DNA of 64,000 nucleotides from a virus, in IMG/VR virus record IMGVR_UViG_3300045988_183127; one strand, given 5' to 3'. Below are positions 1,208-62,448 of this stretch, in pieces. Position 1 is the stretch's first letter, and every line of letters starts with the position of its first letter. Under the pieces are notes generated by a model. The model did not search any database. It had not been told where the DNA came from and saw only the letters and a program-made list of their open reading frames with translations. A program made the position numbers and the translations under genes.

Positions 1208-1898
1208 TTTTATTTCCTTTCTTATTTATATTTTTCATTTATTAATATGACAGAATAAAAAAATATTTTAATTTTTTATTCAGAATTTTAAATCATTAAA
1301 ATTAATATGACAGAATTTCAAATTAAATTTTTGACATAAAAAGCATATATCATTAAATGTGCTGTTTATAATTTTAAGTAATATCAGTAATCCTGCCGAA
1401 GTTTTAAATTACTAATTTATGGTTTGATAGGAAATCTATATGTAAAAAAATAAGCATATGGTCTGATATCCAAACAGAAGTATCTGAATGTCAGAGAAAA
1501 ACATAAAATACCCTGTTAACATTAAGAGCTATACATGTGTTTAGCAGTTTAATGTAACAGGGTATGGATTCAATCATCTTCTATACAAAAATCAGATTAT
1601 ATTTAGTTTTAATGTGGTATGTCAGGATATAAATTCTAAAGTGCAAATTTAATACTATATTGGATAGCTGATAAAATTATGCTGAGTACAAGGTATAAGT
1701 GGATCTTCAAAGGTTTAGCTTCTTAATACATTCAATACAAATATCTAAAATTTCATTTTTAATAACTTTCCATTCTTCTTCAGTTTTAATGTCATATTCT
1801 TCAAAGCCATAAGTTTCAATATTTTCGATTGTTCTTTTCTTGCTTTCTTTGAGAAGAAATTCGTTCCTGCTCCTATGGTAGATTTTATTTTACTGTAA

Positions 1899-2243
1899 TT
1901 AATAATCCTCATCGTAATCAAAAATTTCTTCCTGCTCATAAATATTTGGATTAGGATTTAATAATTGATATACAAGTGTTTTCTCTTGTAGGTCACATAA
2001 TGCGTCAATAGGATCAACTCCTCTTAGAATATCTCGCTTAAATTCTAAATCAGCTATTGAATCTTCAAAACTATATCCATCAGAATCATCAGAATATCCT
2101 TTATGGAATTTTGCATTTGCCATTTCAACACTCATTTTTCCTATTTCTTTTTTATAATTATTCAAATCATGAAATTCTTTATCTGTCATAACGATCATCC
2201 TTTCTTTTAGAATTAAGAATAAAATCATTTGTTGCTTTTTCAA
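1899..2243 (-). CDS. hypothetical acidic protein
   Basis: 114-aa ORF, no recognisable motifs. Confidence 0.4.
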   Translation of the reverse strand: MKKQQMILFLILKERMIVMTDKEFHDLNNYKKEIGKMSVEMANAKFHKGYSDDSDGYSFEDSIADLEFKRDILRGVDPIDALCDLQEKTLVYQLLNPNPNIYEQEEIFDYDEDY

Positions 2244-2761
2244 TACATGTATTTTATAGGAACATACAAAATTATATTTAATGTATTTTTGTCATAAGTT
2301 AAATCAAAGTTATCTGATTCAGAATATGTTATTTCACTTAAAGGTAACTTATATTCAGAATATATGCTGCTATTTTTTTTAAAATAAAAAAGCTCTGTAA
2401 AATCTGATTGAAAATATACTTCTTTATTTATGTCTATTTCTTGAATAACCTTTTTTAAAGCTATTATTTTATCCCAATATTCTGAATTTTTAATACCTAT
2501 AACAGTGGAATCAATGTCTTTGCTGATACATATAAATAAACTTAAATATATAAAAACACTAAAACCTATTAATGCAATTATTGAAATAAATGTAAGTTTT
2601 ATAATCAAGCTTATAATTCTTAAAATAAAACATATAAGAATACCTGCTAAAACAATTTTAGTTATTCGTTTTTTTGATAAAGATTTATTAATATTTTCAT
2701 CAGTCGCATTATCAAAATTAATATTCAAATATTCGTTATGTGTTTTTAATTTTAAATTCAT
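2240..2761 (-). CDS. hypothetical membrane protein
   Basis: 173-aa ORF with two hydrophobic helices; start overlaps previous stop. Confidence 0.45.
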   Translation of the reverse strand: MNLKLKTHNEYLNINFDNATDENINKSLSKKRITKIVLAGILICFILRIISLIIKLTFISIIALIGFSVFIYLSLFICISKDIDSTVIGIKNSEYWDKIIALKKVIQEIDINKEVYFQSDFTELFYFKKNSSIYSEYKLPLSEITYSESDNFDLTYDKNTLNIILYVPIKYMY

Positions 2762-2854
2762 ACCTTATTCTCCTACTATTAATGATTCTTTATTAATTTT
2801 GTCTTTTTGATTTTTTATATCAGTATCATCAAATGTATCAAAATTTTTCCTTTT

Positions 2855-2968
2855 TCTTTATTTGATATTTTGAATTAAAGAACAACCATCAATATCAAAA
2901 ACAACTGTTTTATTTTTTTTCTCAACTGGCAAAATAAATCGTCTCTGTTATCCCCAAATTTATCCCTA
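2855..2968 (-). pseudogene. frameshifted remnant of a paralog of the C-terminus of the 3398..4072 gene
   Basis: reverse strand translates DKFGDNRDDLFCQLRKKIKQ / (frame change) KTVVFDIDGCSLIQNIK*, matching RFRDDRDDLFQLKKGKTVTFDIDKGSLIQDIK* of 3398..4072; ~110 nt nucleotide similarity to 3398-3510. Confidence 0.45.
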
Positions 2969-5708: not shown

Positions 5709-6644
5709 TTATTCTATTTTATTTAATTCACCTGATTCTTTGTTAAATATAAATATATCTGAACTCAGATAATCTTCTTCTTCCTGAATACCAAATATCT
5801 TTAATGCTATTTGAATTTCTTCAGGAGTAAATTCATCGTATTTACATATCAACAAAATATGTGCTGTAACAGGAACAATGTATAAATTTGTTTTCAGTTT
5901 CTCTGAAATATTCTTAAGCAAATTATTATTCAAAATTGCACTTGTATTATAAAAGTCAATTATATTTTGAATTGCATATATTCCTTTAATACATTTGCTC
6001 TCAAACCCGTCAGAATTACTTAGAAAATATAATTCTTTCTTTGTTTTTTCATAATTATCATCATCTGCCAGTTGTGTCAAAAAATAATCACCTAATACAC
6101 TGATAAAATATTTGTTGGAATATATTGAATGAATTGCAAGATTGTACAATTCGTTTTCATTAATTTTCAGTATGTTCCTCATATAGTTATTATCAATTAC
6201 AAACATTGTACCTTCTGAATTTTCTTTAGGTATGATCACATTATAAATTATTTCGAACTCATAAAATGGCCTATGAGGAATACCGCTTAAATTTTCCATA
6301 TTGTCCGGCTTTTGTATTAATTGAGGCATAATATAGTGTTTTATATCATTTAAATTAATTTCTGGAGTTAAATTATTAAGTTTATATTCACTACCATTAG
6401 AATTTTCGTTTCTATAAAATGCTTCAGATATTGACAATGCAATTTCTTCTATTGACGAATTATTTAAATATTGTTTATATAATTGATTTAATTTAAATTC
6501 TAAGGGACACATAAACTGATTTTTAGAATGAAAAATAAGCTTATCTGATGTGTAAACTATATCTGTTGGTGTAATATCTTCAATATTTTGAAGTAATTCG
6601 AATTTAAGATGTTTAAGAAAATCTTTATAATTCATTTTTTGCAT
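5709..6644 (-). CDS. hypothetical protein
   Basis: 311-aa ORF; TTCTGTCATA box 38 nt upstream. Confidence 0.5.
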   Translation of the reverse strand: MQKMNYKDFLKHLKFELLQNIEDITPTDIVYTSDKLIFHSKNQFMCPLEFKLNQLYKQYLNNSSIEEIALSISEAFYRNENSNGSEYKLNNLTPEINLNDIKHYIMPQLIQKPDNMENLSGIPHRPFYEFEIIYNVIIPKENSEGTMFVIDNNYMRNILKINENELYNLAIHSIYSNKYFISVLGDYFLTQLADDDNYEKTKKELYFLSNSDGFESKCIKGIYAIQNIIDFYNTSAILNNNLLKNISEKLKTNLYIVPVTAHILLICKYDEFTPEEIQIALKIFGIQEEEDYLSSDIFIFNKESGELNKIE

Positions 6645-6842
6645 ATAATTAGTTCTCCTTTTGTTTAGTTATATTTTTAATATGACAGAAAAAATGAATC
6701 ATTATTTTACATAAAATAATTGATGTGTGTTAAAATAAGACAGCAACTAAATGTAAATGCCTTTTATTTATTAAAATATCCCGTTTTTGTGTTCTTCTAA
6801 GCACTTTATTGGGTATACTATGCCTTCACTTGTAAAAAAATA

Positions 6843-7924: not shown

Positions 7925-8953
7925 TTACATAAAAGATTGTATACTATATCCTTTCCGTCTGAAACGAACTCTAATCTTTTTTATTGCTTTTGATTCAATC
8001 TGTCTGATTCGTTCTCTGGAAACATTCCATTCAGTACCTATATCTTTTAAAGTTTTAACCTTTGAACCATATCCCATTCTACTCTTAATTACATATAATT
8101 CTCTAGGAGTGAGACAATCTTCAACTTCTTTCCAAAGCAGTTCATTCATTTCTTTTTGAATAATCGTATCTTCAACTTTAGGTTCAGGAGCTTCTATATA
8201 ATCAGCCAAACACGAATCGTCATGGCCTTCGTCACTTTGAATAGGTGCATCTAATGAAACCAATTCATTAAAGCTCTGAATATGTACAAGCATTTCTTTA
8301 GTTAAAAGAGGATATCTTTGTTTTACTACATCATATAATTCATCAATTGTAGGTTTTCTTTGAAGTTTATTAGTTAAATCCACAAATGTAGTCTTAACAA
8401 AAGAATCCTGCTCTCTTACATGTACAGGGAATCTAACTAATAAATCATAATTGGCTAATTCTCTATATATACTCTGTCTAATCCAATGAGTTGCATAAGT
8501 TGAAAATGCATATCCTAATTTATAATCAAACATTTGTATAGCTCTGTATAACCCGAAAATACCGGCCTGACATAAATCATCCATTTCAAAACTTTGCGTT
8601 TTAGCTGTAACAGCTTTAGCAATACTGATGACTAAACGCATATTAGATAAAATCAATTTTTCGGTTATTTCTTTTTTCTTTTTAGGATGTTTTTTTATCT
8701 CTTCAAATAATTTAAGAGTTTCATCTTTGGATAAAACCGGATAATCAGCGAATGATTTAATATAATAAGTTATATTATTTTCTAATAATAGTTTCTCTTT
8801 TTCATTTAAAATCTCTTTATCATTTAAAATATCGGTATAATTATCCTCTGATAAAATATTTATGTTTTCTATTGGTTTATTTGTATCAAATAATTCATCA
8901 ATATATTCATCTTTATTGTTTTTTTTATTTAATAATAAATTCTTATCTGCCAT
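7925..8953 (-). CDS. sigma-70 family RNA polymerase sigma factor
   Basis: region 2 LCQAGIFGLYRAIQMFDYKLGYAFSTYATHWIRQSI and region 4 HTH TLKDIGTEWNVSRERIRQIESKAIKKIR; acidic N-terminus; SD AAGAGGAG. Confidence 0.8.
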   Translation of the reverse strand: MADKNLLLNKKNNKDEYIDELFDTNKPIENINILSEDNYTDILNDKEILNEKEKLLLENNITYYIKSFADYPVLSKDETLKLFEEIKKHPKKKKEITEKLILSNMRLVISIAKAVTAKTQSFEMDDLCQAGIFGLYRAIQMFDYKLGYAFSTYATHWIRQSIYRELANYDLLVRFPVHVREQDSFVKTTFVDLTNKLQRKPTIDELYDVVKQRYPLLTKEMLVHIQSFNELVSLDAPIQSDEGHDDSCLADYIEAPEPKVEDTIIQKEMNELLWKEVEDCLTPRELYVIKSRMGYGSKVKTLKDIGTEWNVSRERIRQIESKAIKKIRVRFRRKGYSIQSFM

Positions 8954-8965
8954 AAAAATCTCCTC

Positions 8966-9361
8966 TTAACATTGATGTCCTAGCATTTTTAATTCATTAT
9001 TTGCTTCTATTTTCATTGTACATATTCTACTAATTGCATTATATGTAAATTTAGATTGCTCTTCAAAGGTTCCTAATATATCTCGTTTAATCATAAGCTC
9101 TTTACATTTATCTGAAGACTCTTTGTGTAATTTCATTTCTTTTACCATTGAATCTAAAATAGAATGCATTGAGGAAAAATAGGTAAAATAATTTCCTACT
9201 TCACTCAATAAATTTCCTATTTCCAATAAATCTATTTCATCTGATCTAGGAATTTCTTTCTTAAAATTAATTAAATACCATTCATATAAATCCGTTGAAG
9301 AAGCTTCAAGGATATCACTTATAGACTTATTTTTTAATTCATTATTCATATTTGTTTCCAT
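8966..9361 (-). CDS. hypothetical protein (operon mate of sigma factor)
   Basis: 131-aa ORF, 12-nt gap to sigma gene. Confidence 0.45.
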   Translation of the reverse strand: METNMNNELKNKSISDILEASSTDLYEWYLINFKKEIPRSDEIDLLEIGNLLSEVGNYFTYFSSMHSILDSMVKEMKLHKESSDKCKELMIKRDILGTFEEQSKFTYNAISRICTMKIEANNELKMLGHQC

Positions 9362-9364: not shown

Positions 9365-10276
9365 TTATTGCTCCTTAATTTCTATATTGATATTTTCAAA
9401 ACACTTAATTACAAAATAAATTAAACTCATTATGCAGACTATTAAAATGCATACCTGTAAATATATATTTGTTATAAAAAACGTAAATGGTATTAATGCC
9501 ACACAGTTTATTAGAATATGATATAAGCTGCTAAGTTTAATACCATATTTATCTCTTACAGCACCTAACAAATATCCGCCAAAAGCATATATAGGGAATA
9601 AAATAAAATTAAAATGAATTATTCCAAATAAAACTGCTTGGATTATATTTGCACATAATTTATTGTTGCTTGCTTTATATGCATAGCCATAAATTATATA
9701 TCTAAAAGTCAATTCCTCAATAATAGGTGCCACAAAAGTTGCTATTATTGTAGATATAATTGTTTTTATTCCTAAACTTCCATAATCAATATCTGATACA
9801 TTTACAAAATGCATTTGAATTCCTGAAATAAGCTGCAATATTACAGAAGTTAATATGAAACAAAATACAAAATTCCAATTTACTACTAATTTATTTTTCA
9901 TAAACAAATCTTTTTTATAATTGTAAAATGAGCTTTTTATACAAATAATGCACATAACAAACATTAATGTATATGTTGATATTGTATAAATTAATCGAAA
10001 TCCTTCATAATCTATTTTAGTTGAAATTCCTCCTGCATCATTCATATACATATTTAATAGACTGTCTATAAATGTTGCAATAAACATTGAAAATAAAATT
10101 ATAAAAACAGAAATAATAAATGGAATAAAAATCTTTATATACTGTTTTGATTTTGAAAAGAAAGAATTACTTTTCATTTTGTTTTTTACCATAAAATCCA
10201 TATAAGAATTTAAATCATGCTTATTTTTTTTATTTCTTAATTCCTTAATATTACTGTTATTGTTACTAAGTATCAT
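9365..10276 (-). CDS. CPBP (CAAX/Abi) family intramembrane metalloprotease
   Basis: multi-TM; motifs EELTFRY, FGIIHF, HILIN. Confidence 0.7.
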   Translation of the reverse strand: MILSNNNSNIKELRNKKNKHDLNSYMDFMVKNKMKSNSFFSKSKQYIKIFIPFIISVFIILFSMFIATFIDSLLNMYMNDAGGISTKIDYEGFRLIYTISTYTLMFVMCIICIKSSFYNYKKDLFMKNKLVVNWNFVFCFILTSVILQLISGIQMHFVNVSDIDYGSLGIKTIISTIIATFVAPIIEELTFRYIIYGYAYKASNNKLCANIIQAVLFGIIHFNFILFPIYAFGGYLLGAVRDKYGIKLSSLYHILINCVALIPFTFFITNIYLQVCILIVCIMSLIYFVIKCFENINIEIKEQ

Positions 10277-10305
10277 ATATTTTCCTCCAACCTTTCTAAT
10301 ATATA

Positions 10306-10315
10306 TATGACAGAT
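10306..10315 (-). promoter_or_regulatory. TCTGTCATAT box (representative type B with second element TTTTTATGTAAA 16-17 nt upstream on the gene strand)
   Basis: 31 nt upstream of CPBP gene start; distal element at 10327-10340 preceded by hairpin TACCGCTG...CAGCGGTA. Confidence 0.6.
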
Positions 10316-10388
10316 ACAATTTTAAAAATCTTTACATAAAAAAATACCGCTGCAATAAACAGCGGTAAAACATAAAATAAATATTAAA

Positions 10389-12074
10389 TTAGCATTTGCG
10401 TACTATTGAAGGTGCTGACATATCAGGGTTAATGAATTTCTTGCATAAATGTTCAATTCCGGTTGTTGAATCAAGCCAATATAAATAATCCCCGTCATTA
10501 TCTACCAGATATTCATTAATAGAATCAAGAACATCGTTTACTTCGGAAACAGTACAAATAAATCTATATGAAGACTTATTTTTCTTTAAAGGTTTAACAG
10601 ATTTAGCAATAATCTGATATACAGTTTCGTCATCTGAAGATCTAAAATCATCTACTTGAATTTTTCCTGATAAACATAATTTAGCATCATTAACAAGTAA
10701 GTCTCTAATATTTGCATAATCTTTAGAAAAACATACACCATTAATAGAACCTGTTTTATCTTCTACCTCAAAAGTTACCCATTCGTATCCATTTCTATCC
10801 TTTCTTACAACAAGATTTTTAATTATACCAGATACATCGTTAACTTCTGTTGAAATATCAGAAATGGGATCTGTATAAATATTATACTCATCAATTGGAT
10901 GCCCTGTAATATAAACGCCTAACACTTCTTTTTCATCATTTAGAATCTGACCTAAATCATCTTCTACATAATCAATATCTATATTTTCAAGATCATCTTC
11001 TAAGCTTTCTATAACTGTCTTAGCTGAATTGATACGTTTAATTATGGAATCTTTAGTTGGCATCTTTTTTGAAGTAACTTGAAAGGAAATATTTTCTTCT
11101 GAAATTCTTTCCTTAAACTCATCAAGATCAATATAATCTTCCACAAATTCAATAACTTTACTTGCGTTTTCAATAAACTTACTCTTCTCTCTGATTTTCT
11201 TAATTGTATCCTGAATTTCTTTCATACAAATCATATCTAATGATATCATTGTTCTTGTATAACCAAGGCAATCGAAAGCACCTGCTTTAATTAAGGAACT
11301 TAATGCTTCTGCATTAATATTTGTTCGTTTGATAAAATCCTTAATATCAGAATATTCTCCATTAACATTTCTATCTTCAATAATTTTAGCTGCTTCTGCT
11401 CCAACATTCTTAATATTACTCAGACCATACAAAATGTTCCCATCTACAACATCACAATGTAAATTTGAAGCATTAATGTCCGGAGGCAATACCTTTACTC
11501 CAAAATCAAGGGCATCACTAATATCATCAGCGACTTCATCAATCTTATCAGTATGATTTATTACATTTGTAAGATAATAAGCCGGATAATAATACTTAAG
11601 AAAAGCTGTCCAATATGATGTAACAGCATAAGCAGTGGCATGTGACTTATTAAACGCATACTTAGCAAAGTCAACCATTGCATCCCAAATCTTATGAGCT
11701 ATAACTTCTGGAATTCCATTTGCAATACAACCTGGTACTAATGCTTCATTTTCTTTTTTAGTATCAGCATTACCATATACAAAAGTGTGTCTTTCAGCAT
11801 CAATCTCATCCTGATGTTTTTTTGACATAGCTCTACGGACTAAATCAGAACGCCCCCATGTATATCCTGCTAAATCACGAACAATCTGCATTACCTGTTC
11901 CTGATAAACTATCTGTCCATAAGTAGTTGACAAAATTGGCTCTAATTGAGGACATAAATATTTAATCTTAGATGCATCCTTTTTACCTTCTATGAAATCA
12001 GGTATAAACTTTTCAGGACCAGGACGATATAAAGCATTCATTGCTATTAAATCTTCAATACCTGTTTTATTCAT
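10389..12074 (-). CDS. DNA polymerase III alpha (DnaE-like) C-terminal half: fingers/OB, separately encoded
   Basis: begins IEDLIAMNALYRPGP, has YGQIVYQEQVMQI, FNKSHATAYAVTSYWTAFLKYYYPAYY and an OB-fold-like region. Confidence 0.85.
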   Translation of the reverse strand: MNKTGIEDLIAMNALYRPGPEKFIPDFIEGKKDASKIKYLCPQLEPILSTTYGQIVYQEQVMQIVRDLAGYTWGRSDLVRRAMSKKHQDEIDAERHTFVYGNADTKKENEALVPGCIANGIPEVIAHKIWDAMVDFAKYAFNKSHATAYAVTSYWTAFLKYYYPAYYLTNVINHTDKIDEVADDISDALDFGVKVLPPDINASNLHCDVVDGNILYGLSNIKNVGAEAAKIIEDRNVNGEYSDIKDFIKRTNINAEALSSLIKAGAFDCLGYTRTMISLDMICMKEIQDTIKKIREKSKFIENASKVIEFVEDYIDLDEFKERISEENISFQVTSKKMPTKDSIIKRINSAKTVIESLEDDLENIDIDYVEDDLGQILNDEKEVLGVYITGHPIDEYNIYTDPISDISTEVNDVSGIIKNLVVRKDRNGYEWVTFEVEDKTGSINGVCFSKDYANIRDLLVNDAKLCLSGKIQVDDFRSSDDETVYQIIAKSVKPLKKNKSSYRFICTVSEVNDVLDSINEYLVDNDGDYLYWLDSTTGIEHLCKKFINPDMSAPSIVRKC

Positions 12075-12110
12075 TTTAAATTTCTCCTTTCAATTCATAA
12101 CTATATAATT

Positions 12111-12120
12111 TATGACAGAA
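12111..12120 (-). promoter_or_regulatory. TTCTGTCATA box (representative type A: terminator hairpin + T-run + box)
   Basis: box 38 nt upstream of DnaE C-terminal gene ATG; hairpin AGCGTCCAA/TTGGACGCT at 12131-12150 abuts it. Confidence 0.6.
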
Positions 12121-12160
12121 AATTAAAAAAAGCGTCCAATTTTGGACGCTTGCATAAATA

Positions 12161-13046: not shown

Positions 13047-13146
13047 ATTTTTTTACTCTCCTTCCATTTATTGTTATAATAAATAAATGACAGAAAAATA
13101 AAATAACAAGTACCCATTAATAGGTACTTGTTATTAAGCATTTGTT

Positions 13147-14465: not shown

Positions 14466-14573
14466 TAATTTTTCTCCTTTATAATTTTTAATATATTTAT
14501 GACAGAAAAAAAGCAGGAAACATAAGTCTCCCGCTTTCAAAAAATCTTATTCAGTTATGAAAAATTAAGATAT

Positions 14574-48679: not shown

Positions 48680-48784
48680 AATGTTTCTCCATTAATATAT
48701 TGTTCATTATATATATGACAGAGAAAAAAAGTCTTTATGCGATTAAACATAAAGACTTTTACAATAGTTTGATAAAGTAAAGTA

Positions 48785-49427: not shown

Positions 49428-50747
49428 TTAATGAGTAATAATATTAGATAATGCAGTCATAATTTCTTCATTATTTTCTATTATTTGGTTTTTATCAAAG
49501 CCAATTATATACTGAACATAAAAATTATAAAGGACATCATAACTGATTTTGTAATCTAAAATTGACTTATCATTAATAACAGGGGCAAAATTATATTCTA
49601 TGCATAATTGCAATGACTTTAAATTTGCATATTTACCTTTAATAGCCTTTGAAATATCATTAATCCATAAAACATTATGTCCTGCTTCAAATTGATTCAT
49701 ACGCAAAGCTGTATATTCAATTTGGAATAATGACTTCTGTTCTTCAGCGGTAAATAATCTTTCAGGCTCAGCATACAATTTTTTAATATTTATAATATTA
49801 TTTGACATAAATTCAAGAATATTACAAATAATTCCACTACCAGTTATTGCTGTTACATTATCAATAGACGATGCTAAAATAGCGTGTTCCTTTAATTTTC
49901 CCTCTGGAATATCAATCAAAAGATTATTTGCTACAGAATTCATTTCTTTTGTTAATGTTTTTTTTATCTGTTTAATAATTTTTGCCTCAAAATATGTCGC
50001 TTTTATCATACTAAGTTCCTTAATATGATATTTTTCATATAATTCCACACCTAATATTTTTTGTAAATTATGTTTTGCTTCTATATCAGGGACAATAATG
50101 GTTTTGTTTTCATCAGTCTTTATATATAAAGAATATCTGAACACAGAAAAAGGGATACTTTTTATTGAACTGTAATTTTTATATATATTTATTCTTTCAT
50201 TTAAAAAATTTGTTATATTATTTAATTCATCTTCTGTAAGATTTGATTTTTTCTCATTAACACTATAATGAGCTAAGAAATCTCTTATTGTATTTCCTCC
50301 ATAAATTTCAGTGCCGTTATGATTTTTTATGACATTACCGGCATTAATAATTTTGTCAGGAGTCATAAAATAATTTAAATCTAATCCTTTTAATTTAAAT
50401 ACCAAACCCTTATAAATCATTCCATAAGCTAAATCGGCTAATTCGATAATAGAGCGTGTAGCTAAATTTTCAATATTTAATTTAACAACATCATCATATT
50501 TAAATAAATTAATAAGTGCATTCTTTTTTGCATTATATCCATTTTGTAAATTATAAATATGTAATGGTGATAATTCTAATATATGCCTGCCGCACATATA
50601 TCCATACATTGTTTTATAAAAAATATCACATTTGTTATAATCATATTTAAATGCTTTTAAAATTTCTTTAGGATATTTCCTATTTGCTCTTTTTTTTACA
50701 TTATTGTTTTTATTACTATTTTCTTTAAATTCAACTTTTGTTATCAT
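49428..50747 (-). CDS. hypothetical protein
   Basis: 439-aa ORF. Confidence 0.45.
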   Translation of the reverse strand: MITKVEFKENSNKNNNVKKRANRKYPKEILKAFKYDYNKCDIFYKTMYGYMCGRHILELSPLHIYNLQNGYNAKKNALINLFKYDDVVKLNIENLATRSIIELADLAYGMIYKGLVFKLKGLDLNYFMTPDKIINAGNVIKNHNGTEIYGGNTIRDFLAHYSVNEKKSNLTEDELNNITNFLNERINIYKNYSSIKSIPFSVFRYSLYIKTDENKTIIVPDIEAKHNLQKILGVELYEKYHIKELSMIKATYFEAKIIKQIKKTLTKEMNSVANNLLIDIPEGKLKEHAILASSIDNVTAITGSGIICNILEFMSNNIINIKKLYAEPERLFTAEEQKSLFQIEYTALRMNQFEAGHNVLWINDISKAIKGKYANLKSLQLCIEYNFAPVINDKSILDYKISYDVLYNFYVQYIIGFDKNQIIENNEEIMTALSNIITH

Positions 50748-50810
50748 ATAAATCCTCCAAAATATATTAATCTTATATTGTTTGATAGAAAATTAATTCT
50801 ATATAATATA

Positions 50811-50820
50811 TATGACAGAA
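50811..50820 (-). promoter_or_regulatory. TTCTGTCATA box next to the terminator hairpin disrupted by the IS
   Basis: 65 nt upstream of 49428..50747 start; reconstructed pre-insertion hairpin AAAACAGGG-caatatata-CCCTGTTTT. Confidence 0.55.
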
Positions 50821-50904
50821 CAAAATAAAAAACAGGGCAATATTGATATGATACCTCTTAAGTAGACATGGTAAATAACCAAAATCTATTTAAGGGGTAT
50901 TTTT

Positions 50905-53798: not shown

Positions 53799-53913
53799 AA
53801 TTTTTCTCCTTTGGCTTTGTTATCATATATATTGAATGACAGAAATATAAAATAAGATAAAAAATATGATACTGTTTCTTAAATTAAAATCTTAAATGCT
53901 GTGATTGTTTAAA

Positions 53914-54528: not shown

Positions 54529-54641
54529 AATATCTATTTAACTCCTTAAATTAAAATCTTAATTAATAAATATATGACAGTTAAAAAATATTTTTTGAAA
54601 AACAATATAAAAAACAGCCATCAAATGATGACTGTTTTTGC

Positions 54642-55391
54642 TTAAGATTTTTTATTTTTAGCTTTTTTAATTATGCTCCAATCCTCTTCTGTGAAATATG
54701 GATACATATCATAGACTGCAAATTCTCCATCTTTTTTAGAAATTGTATATTCTAAAACAATATGAAGTCCATGACAGTCAAAAGGAATATCATAATTTGT
54801 ACCTTTTACAATTCCTTTTCCTATAACCGTATTAGATACTATATCTATAACTAAACGATTATGTCTTCTGTCGTTGTAATAAATATCTCTATCCTCACAC
54901 CAGTTCTGAATTTTAGAAATAATAGAGGTATTATTTGAAGCAATTAAAACTCTCTCTAATGCTTCAGATGCACTTTCTAATGAATCAAACCATGTAGGAT
55001 GGAAGGTACCATTCTTAGCGCCTTTAATTCCTTTCTTTTCTTTTGTAGCTTCAGAAATTTTATTTATAGCCCATGAAATTTCTGGAGCTATATGTTGTAG
55101 CACATGAGGAGTATGTTCCTCAACATAATCATTTGCTCCTGATCTGGTTTCAACCAAATCATTAGCTTCGAAATTGAAAAGATATTCTTCTGCATCATAA
55201 AATTTTTCGATATATGATGCTACATTAAAAAAATCCTTTTTATATGTGCCAGCCTTTTTGTCTGACATAATTTCATTTAATTCTGCCATAGTGCAGCGTT
55301 CCTTTCTTCGCAATGTGCGAACAAAAAAAGCTACCCTAAAAAGTCTATAAAGACATTTTAAGGTAGCTAAACAAATAGTTCTAATTTTCAA
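54642..55391 (-). CDS. hypothetical protein
   Basis: 249-aa ORF. Confidence 0.45.
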   Translation of the reverse strand: MKIRTICLATLKCLYRLFRVAFFVRTLRRKERCTMAELNEIMSDKKAGTYKKDFFNVASYIEKFYDAEEYLFNFEANDLVETRSGANDYVEEHTPHVLQHIAPEISWAINKISEATKEKKGIKGAKNGTFHPTWFDSLESASEALERVLIASNNTSIISKIQNWCEDRDIYYNDRRHNRLVIDIVSNTVIGKGIVKGTNYDIPFDCHGLHIVLEYTISKKDGEFAVYDMYPYFTEEDWSIIKKAKNKKS

Positions 55392-55685: not shown

Positions 55686-55770
55686 ATATAAGACTCCCTT
55701 CTTGGAGTTATTCTCCATTAAATTTATTGATAAAAAATATATGACAGAAAAAACAGTATATGTTAAAGAT

Positions 55771-58104
55771 TTATCCAAACTGTTGTCTTTTTATTAAAAT
55801 ATTATTATATATTTCATCCCAGTATTTATTTATAGCATCAATTTCTTGTTGATCAGTTAATGCGTTCTTATCGATAATAACATCATCAAGACTTTTTATA
55901 ACAGTATTAGCAGTTTTATAATCTGAAATATTAGCATTCTCAGCTTCTTTTAAAGCATCATATGCTTTTTTGTAACAAAAACTGGCATTTTCATAATTAG
56001 GAAAATCGATTTGAAAAAAATCTTTTTTACCAGAATTATAATTACATTTTTTCCCTTCCCAGTCAATATAATGCTCATAAATAGTTTCAGGTTTCTCAAA
56101 TTCCTTATTATCTAAATTCTGGTGCAAATATTCATTAAACTGCTTCCATATTTCTCCACATATTGCTGAACCATTATCAAAATTTTTAGGAATATCATAT
56201 CCGGTCCATATACATGTTGTGTAATATGGTGTATATGCACATAGCCAAGAGTCCTTGTTATCATTCGTTGTTCCAGTTTTTCCTGCACAAATCTGATTAT
56301 CTATTTGATAATTTTTGACGTATCCTTCTGTAAAATTTGAAATTAAACAATCTGTCATCATATAAGCGGTGCCTTTTTTATATACTTGAATATCTTCTTT
56401 ATTTTGATATATTTCTTCATTTTGACGCAACATATGTTTGATACATGTATTATTATTGTATTTACCATTATTAGCTAATACATTGTATGCTTTAGTCATG
56501 TTTTCTACTGTCACCCCATTTGTAAAACCACCTATGGCAATTGCAGCATTATTATTATCTTCATATGAAATATTATAAAAGTGCATTTTATTTAAATACT
56601 CTAAACAATTATTTATTCCAACATTCATTAATGTTTTAACAGCCGTTGTATTGACTGATTGTAATAAAGCTGTTCTTACTGAAATATTGCCTCTGTAATA
56701 TCCATCATGATTTTTAGGCTGGTATTTACCCTCAAGTGGAGAATCCAAAATCATAGATGATGGATGATAGTCTAAAATATCAAAAGCCGGAGCATAATCT
56801 AATATTGGTTTAATGGAAGAGCCTGGTTGTCTAGGAGATTGATATGCTCTATTTATATATTCATTATCTTCTTGTCCACCTATAATTGCTCTAACATATC
56901 CAGTTTCATTATCAATACACATGGATGATGTTTGAAGAAGATGCCGCCCATCCTCGGATAAGCTGTTATCATATTGTGATAAAACATTTTTTGAAATTTG
57001 TAATAGCTCAAGCTGCTTATCTTTATCTATTGAAGTATATATCCTGTATCCTCCAGTTAATATTTCTTCTTTGTACTTAGAGTATATTCTATTATATTGA
57101 TTAATATAATCTTGCTCATCTTCTGAAGAATCAAAAAGGTATTTAAAATTAAATCCATTCATTTCCATAAGATATTCAATAGAACATTTAAGTGCATATG
57201 AAAATTCATAAGATGTTGGTAAATCAGATGTTTCTTTATATAAAATTAAATCAAGAGGATCTTCTAATGCTTCATTGTATTGTTTTTCTGTAATTATTTT
57301 CTGATTATACATTGTATTAAGGACTTGATTTCTTTTACATATTGCTAATTCATAATTTGTTTCAGGATTATATTTTGTAGGGGCATTTGAAATACCTATT
57401 AACATTGCGGCCTGAGATATTGTTACATCAGATGCATCACATCCAAAATAATATTTACAAGCTGCCTGAATTCCGTAACAATTGCTGCCATAGAAATTAG
57501 AGTTTAAATACATTTCAAGTATTTGTTCTTTAGAATATGATTTTTCCATTTCAAGTGATGCTATTATTTCAGTAAGTTTTCTATCTATTGTTTTGTCTGA
57601 ATTTTTTATAACAATATTTTTTACAACTTGTTGTGTGATTGTACTGCCGCCCTGAGTTATTTTCCCTTTATTCTTTATATAAGCCAAAGAAGCTCGTAAC
57701 AATGCTTTAGCATCAATACCTTTATGAGTATAGAAATTCTTATCTTCCACAGCAATATATCCTTGTATTATATAATCACTGACATCGCTGATATTAACAT
57801 ATTCATAAGAACCGTTAATATTAGCTGCCATTAATGTGCCATCATCATAATAAAAATATGTATTCAGTTCTTTATTAAATTCATCTTGGTTCATATTTTG
57901 TAATGACTCATATGCATTTTCCTGTGCCAATTTGAATTTACTGTAAAATTTAATATAAAATACTGATAATGATATTAAGGATAATAATATGACTATCATA
58001 ATAATCAATATAAAAATTTTAAATATGATTAAAAGATGATTTTTCCTTTTTTTTAGTGGAATATTTTTATCATCATTATAAAGTGGTTGTTTTTTAGAAC
58101 TCAT
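55771..58104 (-). CDS. class A penicillin-binding protein (GT51 transglycosylase + transpeptidase)
   Basis: N-terminal TM; GT51 motifs AVEDKNFYTHKGID, GGSTITQQVVKN; transpeptidase SSIKP (SxxK), SVN, KTGT. Confidence 0.8.
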   Translation of the reverse strand: MSSKKQPLYNDDKNIPLKKRKNHLLIIFKIFILIIMIVILLSLISLSVFYIKFYSKFKLAQENAYESLQNMNQDEFNKELNTYFYYDDGTLMAANINGSYEYVNISDVSDYIIQGYIAVEDKNFYTHKGIDAKALLRASLAYIKNKGKITQGGSTITQQVVKNIVIKNSDKTIDRKLTEIIASLEMEKSYSKEQILEMYLNSNFYGSNCYGIQAACKYYFGCDASDVTISQAAMLIGISNAPTKYNPETNYELAICKRNQVLNTMYNQKIITEKQYNEALEDPLDLILYKETSDLPTSYEFSYALKCSIEYLMEMNGFNFKYLFDSSEDEQDYINQYNRIYSKYKEEILTGGYRIYTSIDKDKQLELLQISKNVLSQYDNSLSEDGRHLLQTSSMCIDNETGYVRAIIGGQEDNEYINRAYQSPRQPGSSIKPILDYAPAFDILDYHPSSMILDSPLEGKYQPKNHDGYYRGNISVRTALLQSVNTTAVKTLMNVGINNCLEYLNKMHFYNISYEDNNNAAIAIGGFTNGVTVENMTKAYNVLANNGKYNNNTCIKHMLRQNEEIYQNKEDIQVYKKGTAYMMTDCLISNFTEGYVKNYQIDNQICAGKTGTTNDNKDSWLCAYTPYYTTCIWTGYDIPKNFDNGSAICGEIWKQFNEYLHQNLDNKEFEKPETIYEHYIDWEGKKCNYNSGKKDFFQIDFPNYENASFCYKKAYDALKEAENANISDYKTANTVIKSLDDVIIDKNALTDQQEIDAINKYWDEIYNNILIKRQQFG

Positions 58105-58382
58105 AATTATTCTCCTTTATATTTATTTACACAATAAATATGACAGAGAATAACAAAAAGCTCCCACCATTAAGGTGAGAGCTATAATCAAAGTTGCTAG
58201 TAGAATTGTAAAATTCTATTAAAGTGTATTTTTACGACAAAATTACCGGCTTTAACAAAAGTGCTAGTCTTTGAGGAGACATATATGTATGCCTAATATA
58301 TACCGACAATATTTTATCACATTGTAAATTATAATACAATATTGATTTAATCATTATATGACAGATTTTTGACTGCAAATTT

Positions 58383-59516
58383 TTACATAATTTTATTTTT
58401 GCCTGTTCTTTTAGCTTTATACAAATTTTTATCTGCTGCATCAAATAAATCGTGAACGGTATTATTTTTCTTATATTCTGTTATTCCTCCAGAGAAAGTA
58501 AATTGCTGCGGAATATTCTCATATTTAATATTGTTGAATTTAATTCTGATATCGTTAATTATATTATATGCCTCAGTATATTCATAATCTGCAAATAATA
58601 TTCCGAATTCTTCGCCTCCATATCTGGCGACAAAAATATTTGATTGGTTAATATTTTGAAGTTCCTTAGCTAAATTAATTAAAACAGTATTTCCAAATTC
58701 ATGTCCATATGTATCGTTAACTGATTTAAAATCATCTATATCTATTATACAAAAATAAAGTTTCTTCTTATATGATATCCATTTCTTTGTTGTATTAAAA
58801 AGAGACCTATAATTATCTAATCGAGTTAATCCATCTTGTGAAATTTCTTTTAATAATTGCGCATTTCTATTTTCAGATAAAACCAGTTTAAGTTCTTTTT
58901 CTTTCTCATATTTAATAACAAGTCTCGAATAAATATATGCAAATATTGTTATGATACATGATAAAAACATATATATTAAATAATTTGGTGGTAACTTATT
59001 TAATTCAGAGATTGATGATAATGAGATTGTAATTATTTCAAATTGACTTATCAAAAATAATTGCCAATTAACCTTGTTACTCCCATATACAATACACATA
59101 AAAATTGGGCAGGCTATTAATGTATATAATACCGGATAATTATAATGAATGATAATTGAAACCACTATAATTAAAGTTAAAATATACAAAGGCATGGCTT
59201 CATATATTTCTGGTATAATATTATCTTGATATTTTCTTATGATTTGTCTACCGGTAAACCATATTATTAAATTAGATGTAGTAGGTGTAAATACATTCAA
59301 TATAATATAAGATAATATATTTATTGTTTGTTTTTCTATTATTATATGTATTGGTATAAATAATAATTCAAAAACAAATATTGTGATTATTATAAGAAGG
59401 TTAATAGCCATTATTTTATTTTGAAATTTATTATACAAATATGCGTATAAACTGGTTTGTTTTTCTGTATGCTCTATTGTATTATCTTGTATTTTAATTT
59501 TTTCTATTGTTTTCAT
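58383..59516 (-). CDS. membrane-bound diguanylate cyclase (GGDEF domain)
   Basis: ~6 TM N-terminal domain; DDFKSVNDTYGHEFGN and RYGGEEFGILF (GGEEF active site). Confidence 0.85.
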   Translation of the reverse strand: MKTIEKIKIQDNTIEHTEKQTSLYAYLYNKFQNKIMAINLLIIITIFVFELLFIPIHIIIEKQTINILSYIILNVFTPTTSNLIIWFTGRQIIRKYQDNIIPEIYEAMPLYILTLIIVVSIIIHYNYPVLYTLIACPIFMCIVYGSNKVNWQLFLISQFEIITISLSSISELNKLPPNYLIYMFLSCIITIFAYIYSRLVIKYEKEKELKLVLSENRNAQLLKEISQDGLTRLDNYRSLFNTTKKWISYKKKLYFCIIDIDDFKSVNDTYGHEFGNTVLINLAKELQNINQSNIFVARYGGEEFGILFADYEYTEAYNIINDIRIKFNNIKYENIPQQFTFSGGITEYKKNNTVHDLFDAADKNLYKAKRTGKNKIM

Positions 59517-59655: not shown

Positions 59656-60870
59656 TTACTCTGTTGCATCATAAAATTCTTTCTCCGGATACAATTCGTT
59701 CAAATTTTCTGCTAAATCAATTTCTTCAAGTAAAGCATTATAGTTCATTTTAATTTTCTCAGATTTAATTAAACTTAACATAGCATCTGCAATTACCGGA
59801 TCAAATTGAGTACTTTTACCTTTTTCAAGCTCATTGATTACAATTATTGAATCTAAATGTTTTCTATACACTCTGTCACTTGTCATTGCGTCAAAGGCAT
59901 CTGCCACAGAAATAATCCTTGCAATATAAGGTATTTGTTCTCCCTTTAAGCCATCTGGGTATCCTTTTCCATCATATCTTTCATGATGATATTTTGCTCC
60001 CAAATCAATGTCCTTAAGCATTGACATATCTTTTAAGATATTTCCGCCTATTACTGTGTGGTTCTTCATTACTTGGTACTCTTCATTTGTTAATTTCCCT
60101 GGTTTATTTAATATGCTATCCGGAATTCCTAGTTTTCCTATATCATGCAATAGTGCTATTGAATGAATATCTTCAATTTCATTTTTATTCATTCCTAATT
60201 TATATGCTAATAAGGCTGTATAATCTGCTACTCTGGTTGAATGGCCTTTGGTGTAATTATCTCTGGCATCGATAATATTTGCTATAGTTGTAACTGTTTG
60301 GAGAGACATTTTATTAATTTGTTCTATTTGATTTATTATTGTTTGTGTATTTTGCAAATTTAGGTCTGTATTTCTTTTATAAAACTTTGAAACAATATAT
60401 GCTGCTGCAAAGCATAAAATAATTATTGCAAGTTGTATCTCCATGTCTTTGCCACCTGATTTATCAATTTTATTATATGTCTTAATAAATATTGCCGTAA
60501 TATTCAACACTGTTGAAAATAAACCGGTTACTATAATTAAAGTTGGGTCATAATATAAAATTAAAAGCAGGATAATTGGGAATATATAAGTAAAACATAA
60601 AACAGTATTTCCTGTAAATAAGGTGAATGTATACATTATTAAAAACGAGAATGTTACAAAATATTTTAAAAATAGCCAGTTTTTATTATAAATAAAAACC
60701 AACCACCCTGTTAAATTCGGGATACTGATTAATATAGCAAATATTGCAAAATATGGTGGTGATATAGCATGTTTTAACATTTCACCAAAATAAATGCCTA
60801 ATAGTGTTATTGTTATTACTGACCAACCACATAAAAGTGATGTATTTAATCTTTCTTGTTCTCTATCCAT
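59656..60870 (-). CDS. membrane-bound HD-GYP c-di-GMP phosphodiesterase
   Basis: N-terminal TM domain; ALLHDIGKLGIP (HD) and HHERYDGKGYPDGLKG (HD-GYP). Confidence 0.85.
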   Translation of the reverse strand: MDREQERLNTSLLCGWSVITITLLGIYFGEMLKHAISPPYFAIFAILISIPNLTGWLVFIYNKNWLFLKYFVTFSFLIMYTFTLFTGNTVLCFTYIFPIILLLILYYDPTLIIVTGLFSTVLNITAIFIKTYNKIDKSGGKDMEIQLAIIILCFAAAYIVSKFYKRNTDLNLQNTQTIINQIEQINKMSLQTVTTIANIIDARDNYTKGHSTRVADYTALLAYKLGMNKNEIEDIHSIALLHDIGKLGIPDSILNKPGKLTNEEYQVMKNHTVIGGNILKDMSMLKDIDLGAKYHHERYDGKGYPDGLKGEQIPYIARIISVADAFDAMTSDRVYRKHLDSIIVINELEKGKSTQFDPVIADAMLSLIKSEKIKMNYNALLEEIDLAENLNELYPEKEFYDATE

Positions 60871-61093
60871 AGGTCCTCCTTATAGTCAAAAAAAGTTATA
60901 TTAATATATATATGACAGATAATATTAAAAAAAGAGTTCAACGTGACTAAGTAAGATCATGCTTACCGTTACCGCTGAACCCTTTTTATAAAAAATATAA
61001 TTAGCTCCTTTATTTTTAGCTAATAATAATATGACAGAATTAAAATAATTTTAACAAAAAAATCAGTGCCATAAAGACACTGATTTTAATTAT

Positions 61094-61672
61094 TTATGCT
61101 ATTTTTCTTTTATATATTGTAGAAAAATATCTTGGTATAATAGAATAATTTTCTATGATCTGATTATGAACATATTCTTCAGTTCTATTATCATTAAAAT
61201 TATTCTCCCAATTTTCCAAATACGACTCTCCTTTTGAAGTAAGCTTTTTTATCTCATACATATTAGTTCCATCGTGATGAGAACATGTAATATATAAATG
61301 GCCATTTGCATCATGTATACGAAAATAGTCACAATCCTTTGTTGCTTTACAGAATGCATCATCAAAATCTGAAAAAACATACGCTGTCTGATATTTTCCA
61401 TTCCATCTCTGAGTGAATCCAAAAATAATCCACTTTCCTTTATAATTAAAGAAATTCTTTAGATTTGAATGTTCATCTTCCCAATTAATGCGATCATTAA
61501 AGTATATTCTATCCCAAATTTCATCATCAGAAGGAATACAGCCATTTTCTTCAATTAAATCTTCTTTGGTAAAATCGTAGTTATCAGATAAATCATAATT
61601 GTCATAAATGATGTTCTTTTCCTTTTCTATAACAACAATATCTTTTTTCATAGTTTCCCTTTCTAAATCCAT
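61094..61672 (-). CDS. hypothetical protein
   Basis: 192-aa ORF overlapping upstream gene by 10 nt. Confidence 0.45.
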   Translation of the reverse strand: MDLERETMKKDIVVIEKEKNIIYDNYDLSDNYDFTKEDLIEENGCIPSDDEIWDRIYFNDRINWEDEHSNLKNFFNYKGKWIIFGFTQRWNGKYQTAYVFSDFDDAFCKATKDCDYFRIHDANGHLYITCSHHDGTNMYEIKKLTSKGESYLENWENNFNDNRTEEYVHNQIIENYSIIPRYFSTIYKRKIA

Positions 61673-62400
61673 GCAGGAGTTACCTTTGTTTCAGGCAAAT
61701 TATTAAGCCATTCAATTACATCCTGAGGCACTTCTTCTATTTTCCATGAAGATCCATATTTATAACCACATACAGGGCATGGTCTGCCAATGAATCCAAG
61801 CTTATGATCTTGATATGAAATCCAGTTTCTTGTCTTATATTCTGTGTTTGTATAGCCTAAACAATCTTTTTCCTTTAATTCATAAGCATTCTTATAAGGA
61901 ATTTCTTCATCATCATAAATCTCAATGGAATATTTCATATTTGTATATGCGGTTTCTTCCATTGTTGGTTCAAATGTTTCTCCATTTTTTAAACAATTCA
62001 AAGCTCTCTTTTCAGCATCTTCCTTTTTTTGATAAGCTTCCTTTGTTAATACCCATTTTTCAATTTTAACTTTATCCTGAATATGTTCTATCCATCCAAG
62101 TTCTTTCATATGTTCACAATAAGGACGCATATCATTTAAATGCCACTTATTCCAGATATCACAAAACTTTTTAAGCATTTTGGTGGTCCATTCATCAGTT
62201 GGAATGCCTTCTCTAATTTCATCAACACACTGGCCAGCAGAACCAAGGCAGTTACCATTTGCTAATGGAGCAATTACACCAGAAATACTTAAACATTTCC
62301 CATCATATTCAATTTTAGCAAAAGCATTTTTACTTACTTTATTTCCGGTAGTTGTATATACCTTACATTTACATGGATTAATAATTTTATTAATAGTCAT
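61663..62400 (-). CDS. hypothetical Cys-rich protein
   Basis: 245-aa ORF; CPVCGY and other Cys pairs; box 35 nt upstream. Confidence 0.45.
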   Translation of the reverse strand: MTINKIINPCKCKVYTTTGNKVSKNAFAKIEYDGKCLSISGVIAPLANGNCLGSAGQCVDEIREGIPTDEWTTKMLKKFCDIWNKWHLNDMRPYCEHMKELGWIEHIQDKVKIEKWVLTKEAYQKKEDAEKRALNCLKNGETFEPTMEETAYTNMKYSIEIYDDEEIPYKNAYELKEKDCLGYTNTEYKTRNWISYQDHKLGFIGRPCPVCGYKYGSSWKIEEVPQDVIEWLNNLPETKVTPAWI

Positions 62401-62448
62401 ATCTTTTTCTCCTTTAAATTTTTGTTATTTAAAATATGACAGAAAAAA

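Follow-up and report, generated by a model that had tools for sequence, protein, structure and literature searches.

The DNA considered here is a stretch of 64,000 nucleotides from a virus (IMG/VR record IMGVR_UViG_3300045988_183127), called the window below. The element in question is a short box, consisting of a T-run and CTGTCATAT, which stands in front of most transcription units and which, as judged from its sequence and setting, is very probably a promoter of some kind. The window has 26-33% G+C, its genes lie almost all on the minus strand and they carry strong Shine-Dalgarno (SD) sequences of the AAAGGAGG type. For replication and repair it codes for a split Pol III alpha subunit, two UvrD-like helicases, RecJ, a UvsX/RecA-like recombinase and a DnaG-type primase. 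Other nucleic-acid functions are represented by a 5'-3' exonuclease, a methylase, RtcB and a nucleotidyltransferase, and there are in addition a PBP1A-like protein, a flotillin-like protein and an RpoD-like sigma factor. A 322-kb metagenome contig (OCHC01000010.1, about 28% G+C, genes nearly all on one strand) carries the sigma gene at 100% identity, and the window matches two IMG/VR viral contigs, of 95 and 103 kb, at about 97% identity. No close cultured phage was found for the window. We take the source to be an uncultivated gut phage of jumbo size, whose genome measures at least 322 kb; the parts inspected were the window of about 64 kb and pieces of about 40 kb of flanking DNA. Its host is probably a low-G+C, SD-using gut bacterium, a Firmicute.

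The heptamer CTGTCAT occurs in 38 copies on the gene (minus) strand. The longer pattern TATGACAGAW, which reads TCTGTCATA on the gene strand, has 24 copies on the plus strand and 4 on the minus strand, that is 28 in total against 0.64 expected. The 8-mer TCTGTCAT is present 32 times in 11.7 kb of intergenic DNA and only once in 52.3 kb of coding DNA; it is the most over-represented intergenic 8-mer, ranking above the SD sequence. Two of the exact CTGTCAT copies seem to be non-functional, one at 54777 (CTGTCATGG, inside an open reading frame (ORF)) and one at 31163, which has no T-run. On the other side of the account, three one-base variants stand in box-like contexts (CCGTCATAT at 27986, CAGTCATAT at 33464 and ATGTCATAT at 34981). 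An earlier note on this DNA had counted about 39 copies, and this is a fair figure, being the 38 exact copies minus the two probable chance copies plus the three variants. The coordinates that it gave are right to within 1 nt, except that the copy placed at 33477 really lies at 33458-33465 (19 nt off) and the one placed at 58347 really lies at 58357-58366.

The position of the box relative to genes was counted over 60 SD-bearing genes. A box is present in front of 30 of the 41 genes whose upstream gap exceeds 60 nt; the 15 genes with a gap of at most 25 nt and the four with one of 26-60 nt all lack it. The start of CTGTCAT lies 37-52 nt from the ATG in 27 of the 30 boxed genes. The distance of 30-43 nt reported earlier is borne out by this, as it was measured from the end of the box and equals 37-52 nt from the start of CTGTCAT. 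It had also been claimed that the genes without a box are exactly those within 25 nt of their upstream neighbour. All 15 such genes indeed have no box, but the rule is not exact, because the four genes with gaps of 26-60 nt and 11 of the 41 with larger gaps do not have one either. Some of these 11 follow long leaders that begin at a box 114-260 nt upstream.

Aligned on the first C of CTGTCAT (offset 0), the 38 copies give a logo in which offsets -8 to -1 are T-rich, CTGTCAT is invariant, A at offset 7 and T at offset 8 are each found in 31 of 38 copies, and offsets 9-14 are almost free of G and C. The logo also contains a conserved T at offset 15 (35/38) and a purine at offset 16 (36/38; 29 A and 7 G), which had not been described before. 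When TG is placed at -15/-14, CATATw becomes the hexamer from -12 to -7 and the T-purine step falls exactly at -1/+1, the canonical distance for a start. In 23 further boxes, taken from outside the window and from a diverged relative, +1 is always a purine, and -1 is a pyrimidine in 21 of them. The proposed alignment would be T-tract(-24..-17) C(-16) T(-15) G(-14) T(-13) C(-12) A(-11) T(-10) A(-9) T(-8) w(-7), an A/T-rich discriminator and T(-1) R(+1). Such a layout fits a TGn-type extended -10 promoter that lacks a -35 element and has C in place of T at -12. TG stands one base upstream of CATAT in all 38 copies, the numbering -15/-14 itself resting on the predicted transcription start site (TSS). 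Within the hexamer A-11 and T-10 are present in 38/38 copies and A-9 in 31/38, but the base at -12 is C in 38/38, and the hexamer is a variant one. The region from -35 to -30 (offsets -19 to -14) has no information content and is filled by hairpin stems or T-runs. The predicted start is the conserved purine at offset 16, which would give a leader of 21-36 nt that contains the SD. Some boxes share the whole leader (…TATCAAAAnTnTAAAGGAGG), which suggests a strong-expression cassette. Thus the earlier proposal of a phage-specific, extended -10-like promoter with a T-tract finds support in strand specificity, intergenic location, fixed distance to SD and ATG, geometry and conservation.

Several other ways of reading the box were tried and rejected. 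Taken as a -35 element (CTGTCA resembling TTGACA), it would have its -10 element 17 bp downstream, which puts the TSS at or beyond the SD, and no conserved hexamer exists there. A -10 hexamer at offsets 10-15, with T15 serving as T-7, leaves -11 without a conserved A. A promoter for a sporulation sigma does not fit by the spacing of the conserved positions, and the phage sigma scores as RpoD-like. Canonical sigma-70 -35/-10 matches are not enriched in the window (131 found against 153 expected in shuffles), and no 'early' class was found in this way. A search of the literature for the motif gave only Pho-box and eukaryotic matches.

The candidate reader of the box is the sigma-70-family factor of 342 amino acids coded at 7925..8953 (minus strand), which has Sigma70_r2 and Sigma70_r4 matches. 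It aligns with primary sigmas (RpoD/SigA) over regions 1.2-4.2, with an E-value of 3e-43 to solved SigA structures; it is far below the cut-offs of the RpoD family, and by score it is RpoD-like and not SigE/K/F/G-like. The protein retains the PVH..E of region 3.0, which includes the equivalents of H455 and E458 that read TG, as well as RERIRQIE in region 4.2. Region 2.3/2.4, on the other hand, reads HWIRQSIYR in this sigma and NWIRQYIIR in that of the relative, against the canonical WWIRQAITR. The residues WW...T at E. coli positions 433/434/440 (WWIRQ..T.R) are kept in 107 of the 120 best homologues, and HW..Y or NW..I is seen in the phage clade only. It is known that T440I and Q437H are suppressors in E. 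coli sigma-70 of a promoter change from T:A to C:G at -12 (PMC2613000). As in those mutants, a change at 440 here goes together with C at -12, the residue being Y in the window and exactly I in the relative; the phage sigmas differ in being natural and in having the extra change of W433 to H or N, and their putative link to -12C comes from co-occurrence. Our main argument for the phage sigma over the host sigma is that an altered reader of -12 and a box with -12C are conserved together in two diverged phages, from which we infer that the one reads the other. The earlier naming of this factor as possible reader is thereby strengthened, by the changes at the -12 residues and by the retained TG readers. 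The sigma gene is the last of an operon at 7925-10276 (minus strand), in which it follows an Rce1-like/CPBP intramembrane protease (9365..10276) and an ORF of 131 amino acids (8966..9361). The same protease/small-ORF/sigma operon is kept in the relative (contig L023, 8674-11035), the small ORF having 128-131 amino acids and no family match. By analogy, the layout recalls protease/anti-sigma/sigma modules, and the phage sigma may be under post-translational control.

The earlier note had also described a GC-rich hairpin before the T-run in most copies, and the counts agree with it. When a hairpin of dG -6 or lower followed by a T-run was looked for within 85 nt upstream, it was present at 28 of 39 boxes as compared with 27 of 300 random positions (9%). 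A scan for the intrinsic-terminator pattern also called examples of these hairpins. The signature of an intrinsic terminator is thus there, a G+C-rich hairpin directly followed by a U-tract, downstream of a stop codon. In 16 of the 30 class-1 copies, as the copies with no second element further upstream are called, the stem ends 3-13 nt before the box, so that the T-run of the terminator and the T-run of the box are the same bases. With a predicted terminator ahead of the box, transcription must restart before the SD is reached, within some 45 nt, and nothing but the box is conserved between the hairpin/T-run and the SD. No RNA structure involving the box itself was found.

A second conserved element had been reported in nine copies, and all nine (class 2) were confirmed. 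TATGTAAR lies exactly 17 nt from CTGTCAT in 9/9 of them, and exact TTTATGTAAR on the gene strand is upstream of a box in 6/6 cases. The element is near-palindromic (T-run/ATGTAAA/A-run; palindrome TTTTTATGTAAAAA) and centred near -38, where dimeric activators or repressors typically bind. It would most likely be the site of an additional regulator. A -35 hexamer was considered for it and rejected, since this would leave 21-22 bp before CATAT; a 17-bp spacer would make the '-10' CTGTCA, which has neither A-11 nor T-7.

The box is conserved in related phages. In two strains about 97% identical to the window, 0 of 288 box-core positions are changed as compared with about 2% elsewhere, which is modest support. 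Stronger support comes from the diverged relative, a phage whose contigs (up to 295 kb) come from Hadza and other gut metagenomes and whose sigma (P0003) is 51% identical. Its intergenic DNA is not alignable by eye (no alignment was run), and yet the same T-run, CTGTCATAT and N6-TA are present upstream of the orthologous dnaE parts and of the protease/small-ORF/sigma operon. TTTTATGTAAAAAA elements, which correspond to the class-2 element, are found in the relative too, 17 nt ahead of a box. In the window's own phage the box continues beyond the window on both sides. Among the matches listed in pattern scans of IMG/VR, multiple copies occur only in the two contigs about 97% identical to the window, and the others are chance matches. 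A sigma-based scan of viral contigs returned the same two contigs, and one of metagenomes returned the 322-kb contig and an unrelated bacterial locus of 47% G+C. Covariation of box and sigma was examined in the one diverged relative.

Taken together, we consider it reasonably likely that the phage's own sigma, with the host core enzyme, reads the box as a promoter. In the proposed mechanism, host core RNA polymerase carrying the phage RpoD-like sigma (7925..8953) would bind the box, region 3.0 (the H455/E458 equivalents) would read TG, and the altered region 2.3/2.4 (H or N for W at 433, Y or I for T at 440) would read C(-12)ATAT. In about 70% of cases the preceding gene would end in an intrinsic-terminator hairpin, and in about half of the class-1 copies the U-tract of this terminator would double as the upstream T-tract of the promoter. 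Termination and re-initiation within about 30 bp could insulate every gene or short operon as a unit of its own. Class 2, which includes the sigma operon, may form a separately controlled and perhaps earlier subclass.

A number of points weigh against this interpretation. Position -7, where a T is normally conserved, is unconserved here (A in 19 and T in 16 of 38 copies). Region 4.2 of the sigma keeps its -35-reading residues, for which the box offers no -35 element. The sigma gene itself stands behind a class-2 box at 10313, and its first expression therefore needs another route, be it host sigma, read-through or protein delivered with the virion. The 11 widely spaced genes with no box mean that other start signals or read-through must also exist. 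The geometry of an element, six nucleotides, T and A/G is that of the AR9 late promoters, AACA-(6N)-TA/G, and it resembles the 6-nt spacing of phiKZ-type early promoters (PMC5312081). Finally, the TSS, the terminators, the factor that reads the box and the function of class 2 are all matters that we infer from the DNA.

The strongest rival is that the host primary sigma reads the box as a promoter of the extended -10 class, perhaps once -35 recognition has been disabled by a phage factor as in Thermus phage P23-45, while the phage sigma serves another class of genes. TGn extended -10 promoters with no -35 element are a known class, as in phage P23-45 (PMC3950348), A-11 and TG are both present, and a box before the sigma operon itself would be explained. 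However, C at -12 in 38/38 copies and an unconserved -7 are both poor for canonical primary sigmas; the phage sigma is altered exactly at the -12-reading position where 107 canonical homologues keep WW...T, and a 9-mer that is nearly invariant over about 40 sites and across two diverged phages is what dedicated phage promoters typically show, not host-type ones. We regard reading by the host sigma as unlikely, without its chance being negligible. A promoter for a phage RNA polymerase (RNAP) coded elsewhere in the genome, either multisubunit and phiKZ/AR9-like or single-subunit, would suit the jumbo-sized genome, the AR9-like geometry and a motif as uniform as those of phage RNAPs. No RNAP-like protein, split beta/beta' included, was found in the window, where the large unannotated ORFs were covered too, or in the flanks inspected. 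A complete sigma-70-family factor is coded, which implies use of the host core enzyme, and the motif has the sigma-70 layout of TGn and A-11, not AACA or TATG, so that CTGTCATAT-(6N)-T-A/G shares the spacing only. We regard a phage RNAP as improbable.

Two further readings do not take the box for a promoter. One makes the box a processing site at which an RNA endonuclease cuts polycistronic transcripts just past protective 3' hairpins. Strand specificity and a fixed place before the SD fit this too, hairpins upstream could stabilise the processed 3' ends, and eleven boxes have no hairpin and would be transcribed through. Against it, the hairpins with T-runs have the signature of intrinsic terminators, so that RNA mostly ends before the box; no RNA structure involves the box, an RNase site gives no rationale for the geometry of TGn, A-11 and T(-1)R(+1), and the co-varying sigma substitutions would be coincidence. 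We hold processing to be very unlikely. Just as unlikely is an operator for a DNA-binding regulator, for instance a winged-helix protein, with the real promoter in a nearby A/T-rich sequence of host type. CTGTCATA is indeed the published repeat unit or half-site of the E. coli Pho box, and the A/T-rich flanks hold many weak -10-like hexamers. But each site has a single repeat with no second CTGTCA 11 bp away (offsets 11-17), Pho boxes replace the -35 element, which is impossible here as the SD is too close, sigma-70-type -35/-10 matches number 131 against 153 expected, and nothing else is conserved between terminator and SD. A bolder possibility is that hairpin, T-run and box form one functional unit, to which we give only a small chance. 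In one version a polymerase terminating in the T-run may be handed directly to the abutting promoter, with recycling of sigma. In another, hairpin and T-tract may be part of promoter recognition, by a phage RNAP coded elsewhere or by an N4-like hairpin-dependent mechanism. In a milder variant the phage sigma may be a natural, -12C-specific and -7-independent relative of sigma-70, in which W433H/N and T440Y/I define a new mode of -10 recognition.

The individual boxes, all on the minus strand, are given here from the right end of the window to the left, with the distance to the ATG that follows. The first, a class-1 box reading CTTTTTTT CTGTCATAT TTTAAA TA (62426..62450), is 42 nt from the ATG of 61663..62400 and has a hairpin directly upstream. 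A tandem pair 119 nt apart (60902-61045) precedes a single gene. Its upstream member (class 1, 61021..61045) has a hairpin upstream and is 167 nt from the ATG at 60870, and the other (class 1, 60902..60926) is 48 nt from this ATG, which belongs to an HD-domain gene (59656..60870). The class-2 box at 58348..58391 has a TTATGTAAA element 17 nt upstream and is followed by a non-coding stretch of 218 nt up to the next box (class 1, 58130..58154), which has a strong hairpin upstream and is 42 nt from the ATG of the PBP1A-like gene (55771..58104). Four class-1 boxes come next: 55731..55755, 62 nt from the ATG at 55685; 54564..54588 (AACTGTCATAT), 52 nt from 54528 with a hairpin 29 nt upstream; 53826..53850 (CTGTCATTC), 44 nt from 53798; and 50802..50826, 71 nt from the ATG of 49428..50747, the first gene past an IS3 insertion. 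The class-1 box at 48705..48729 is 42 nt from the ATG at 48679 and has a hairpin directly upstream.

The class-2 box with TTTATGTAAG at 47881..47924 gives a leader of 114 nt with a hairpin element in the untranslated region (UTR), and then comes a UvrD-like gene (45858..47783). Another class-2 box (CTGTCATAA, upstream TTTATGCAAG; 44783..44826) has a hairpin upstream and is 43 nt from the ATG at 44756. Class-1 boxes are found at 42612..42636 (45 nt from 42583, no hairpin), at 42120..42144 (CTGTCATTA; 45 nt from the ATG of the RecJ-like gene 40340..42091) and at 40237..40261 (AAGCTGTCATAT; 44 nt from 40209, hairpin upstream). The UvsX/RecA-like gene (38533..39627) has a class-2 box with TTTATGTAAA at 39658..39701, 47 nt from its ATG. 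The class-1 box at 38492..38516 is followed by about 460 nt of non-coding DNA with three CATCCTACTTTT repeats and a hairpin, before a gene for 844 amino acids. The class-1 box at 35441..35465 has a strong hairpin directly upstream and is 46 nt from the ATG at 35411. The variant ATGTCATAT (34965..34989) is followed by a copy of the UTR element and a terminator-like hairpin, with no ORF. A class-1 box at 34765..34789, 43 nt from the ATG at 34738, heads an operon with a primase-like gene (33531..34469), and the variant CAGTCATAT (33448..33472) has a hairpin upstream and is 44 nt from the ATG at 33420. At 32899..32942 a class-2 box with TTTATGTAAA gives a leader of 138 nt with the UTR element before the flotillin-like gene (31203..32777).

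Further to the left, the class-1 box at 31002..31026 has no hairpin and is 41 nt from the ATG of a UvrD-like helicase gene for 973 amino acids (28056..30977), and the variant CCGTCATAT (27970..27994) has a hairpin upstream and is 47 nt from the ATG at 27939. The class-1 box at 26799..26823 overlaps the 3' end of the upstream ORF, has no hairpin and is 43 nt from the ATG of the DNA methylase gene (25876..26772). It is followed by a class-1 box at 25527..25551 (43 nt from 25500, hairpin directly upstream), by a class-2 box with TTTATGTAAA at 24631..24674 (hairpin 27 nt upstream, a short ORF about 57 nt downstream) and by class-1 boxes at 23204..23228 (49 nt from 23171) and 22019..22043 (46 nt from 21989, hairpin upstream). 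Class-1 boxes stand before two of the three parts of dnaE. That of part 1 (18885..20726) is at 20752..20776 (CTGTCATGT; 42 nt, hairpin directly upstream) and that of part 3 (10389..12074) is at 12102..12126 (CTGTCATAA; 44 nt, hairpin upstream), the orthologous boxes in L023 being at 2561 and 6822. Between them lie four class-1 boxes with a hairpin directly upstream: 17677..17701 (46 nt from 17647), 15614..15638 (CTGTCATTG; 43 nt from 15587), 14489..14513 (CTGTCATAA; 40 nt from the ATG of the 5'-3' exonuclease gene 13584..14465) and 13077..13101 (CTGTCATTT; 47 nt from 13046). The class-2 box with TTTATGTAAA at 10297..10340 has a hairpin upstream and is 37 nt from the ATG of the operon of protease, 131-residue ORF and sigma; its orthologue in L023 is at 8638. 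A class-2 box with TTTATGTAAA at 6672..6715 is 44 nt from the ATG of 5709..6644 and heads a run of small, tightly packed genes that have no box, down to about 1899. The last two boxes form a second tandem pair before a single gene (1237-1340, 60 nt apart), of which the upstream one is class 2 (1297..1340, upstream TTTATGTCAA) and the other is class 1 (1237..1261), 46 nt from the ATG at 1207. Left out of the promoter count is the CTGTCATGG copy at 54761..54785, which is inside an ORF, has no T-run and is probably there by chance. The CTGTCATTT copy at 31147..31171, again with no T-run and 186 nt before the ATG at 30977, is doubtful.

Some of the leaders have features of their own. The gene for 844 amino acids has no box of its own, and the stretch of about 460 nt from the box at 38508 to the hairpin preceding this gene holds three exact copies of CATCCTACTTTT (38188-38199, 38353-38364 and 38442-38453, minus strand; 0.02 expected); it could be a non-coding RNA or a long regulated leader. 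The repeated 5'-UTR or intercistronic element, about 55-60 nt long and just upstream of SD and ATG, is found at 47813-47872, 32811-32870, 34886-34942, 25294-25350 and 16672-16748, all on the minus strand, and also in the relative L023 at about 6190-6260 and about 6380-6420. Its rough consensus is TTATCGAAGAAT.GCAAGAAAACTCCATCCGACwAwwGTCGGTTGTGAGTAGTTCAT. It folds as a hairpin with compensatory changes in 3 of 11 pairs, and precedes UvrD-like, flotillin-like and nucleotidyltransferase genes and an ORF of 187 amino acids. It has no Rfam match, and it may serve as an operator in translation, as a signal for processing or as a stability element. The Rfam search as a whole gave nothing at gathering thresholds, and at E <= 1 only two sub-threshold matches of chance level. 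Directly downstream of the sigma gene there is a non-coding stretch of 1.2 kb (6690-7925) with stop codons in all frames, in which ATATATTGTTAWTA forms five direct repeats 44-88 bp apart (6841-7095, minus strand). In the relative L023 the corresponding site, too, is occupied by about 1.3 kb of non-coding DNA. The repeat region could be an iteron-type origin or a regulatory region. An alternative genetic code was considered for the 'empty' regions and rejected, as all three kinds of stop codon are present in all frames.

The gene content of the window has several other peculiarities. Pol III alpha (DnaE) is coded in three pieces (10389-12074, 17752-18510 and 18885-20726, minus strand). A 425-bp insertion with no ORF (18508-18932, minus strand) breaks dnaE exactly between positions 102 and 103 of Pfam PF07733. 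It is absent from IMG/VR contig 3300029581_000240, which is otherwise 99-100% identical, and the homologous insertion in L023 holds an HNH endonuclease ORF. This insertion is probably a mobile group I intron, though it has no Rfam match. The second split is inside the finger domain, and its pieces are about 5.6 kb apart with about ten genes between them, several of which have their own box and terminator; in L023 the pieces at this split are only a 90-residue ORF apart. It looks like a genuinely split polymerase and not an intron. The only plus-strand genes belong to an IS3-family insertion sequence (50905-52550, plus strand) with an HTH_Tnp_1 orfA and an rve integrase-core orfB, and because of this insertion there is a local change in GC skew and no box. 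The bifunctional PBP1A-like transglycosylase/transpeptidase (55771-58104, minus strand) and the flotillin/SPFH protein (31203-32777, minus strand) are unusual cargo for a phage, and each has its own box. Strains that are 97-100% identical over most of the window hold different gene cassettes at the same place (L139 1-5598 as compared with 61049-64000 of the window; L147 11200-21158). These cassettes hold for example a PARP-domain protein, an HTH protein and an HNH/RRXRR nuclease, their boundaries lie at box/terminator junctions, and they may mark exchange points for accessory genes.

The present analysis gives a near-complete predicted transcription map, with promoters, starts, leaders and terminators, for the inspected part of the genome (at least 322 kb) of an uncultivated human-gut jumbo phage. 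A promoter with C at -12 and freedom at -7, together with natural changes in the sigma at residues for -12 specificity, is a compact natural experiment on -10 recognition. The cassette of terminator and promoter, about 60 bp long, and the orthogonal pair of sigma and promoter could serve synthetic biology in low-G+C Gram-positive bacteria. With the help of the motif, contigs of this phage clade can also be recognised and their genes oriented and annotated.

A phage with its own sigma and its own promoter is a familiar device and would not surprise a specialist. What sets the present case apart is the motif, the C at -12 with no conserved -7, the full-length RpoD-like sigma and the fusion of promoter and terminator through the T-run. 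Phage-encoded sigmas with promoters of their own are well known from SPO1 (gp28 and gp33/34) and T4 (gp55, TATAAATA). The promoters of phiEco32 gp36 and those predicted for phage 7-11 are likewise phage-sigma promoters (PMC4331800). In all of these, as proposed here, a phage sigma redirects the host core to a uniform, phage-only motif before many genes, which can be found by its intergenic over-representation. The sigma of the present phage differs in being full-length and RpoD-like (regions 1.2-4.2), not minimal or highly diverged, the motif is unrelated, and the box is systematically fused to the preceding terminator via the common T-run.

The Thermus phage P23-45 transcribes its middle and late genes from TGn extended -10 promoters with no -35 element, which are used by host sigma-A together with gp39 (PMC3950348). 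The two systems have in common a TG one base before the -10 element, the missing -35, a start (predicted for the box) about 7 nt past the hexamer and the use for the bulk of the phage genes. The box departs from this in its hexamer CATATw, where -12 is C and -7 has no conserved T, and in its additional T-tract and fixed C at -16, and the present phage has a sigma of its own rather than, or besides, a factor that remodels the host sigma. The late promoters of the non-virion RNAP of AR9, a phiKZ-like jumbo phage, have the form AACA-(6N)-TA/G (PMC5312081). AR9 is similar in having an element that ends at -8, six unconserved nucleotides, T and a start at A/G, and in being a jumbo phage. The sequence differs, however, and here there is a sigma-70-family factor and no phage RNAP genes in the regions inspected, whereas recognition in AR9 takes place via the template strand of uracil-containing DNA.

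Resemblances outside phages are more limited. The -10 elements of the Bacillus sporulation sigmas E, K and G begin with CATA; their promoters need a specific -35 element and have no TG or T-tract. The box shares with them the start C-A-T-A in place of T-A-T-A, but it has a TG and a T-tract, and the phage sigma is RpoD-like. The E. coli Pho box (CTGTCATAWAWCTGTCAY) contains the same heptamer CTGTCAT, whereas the box is single-copy, lies at -16 to -10 and does not replace a -35 element, and we judge this likeness to be coincidental.

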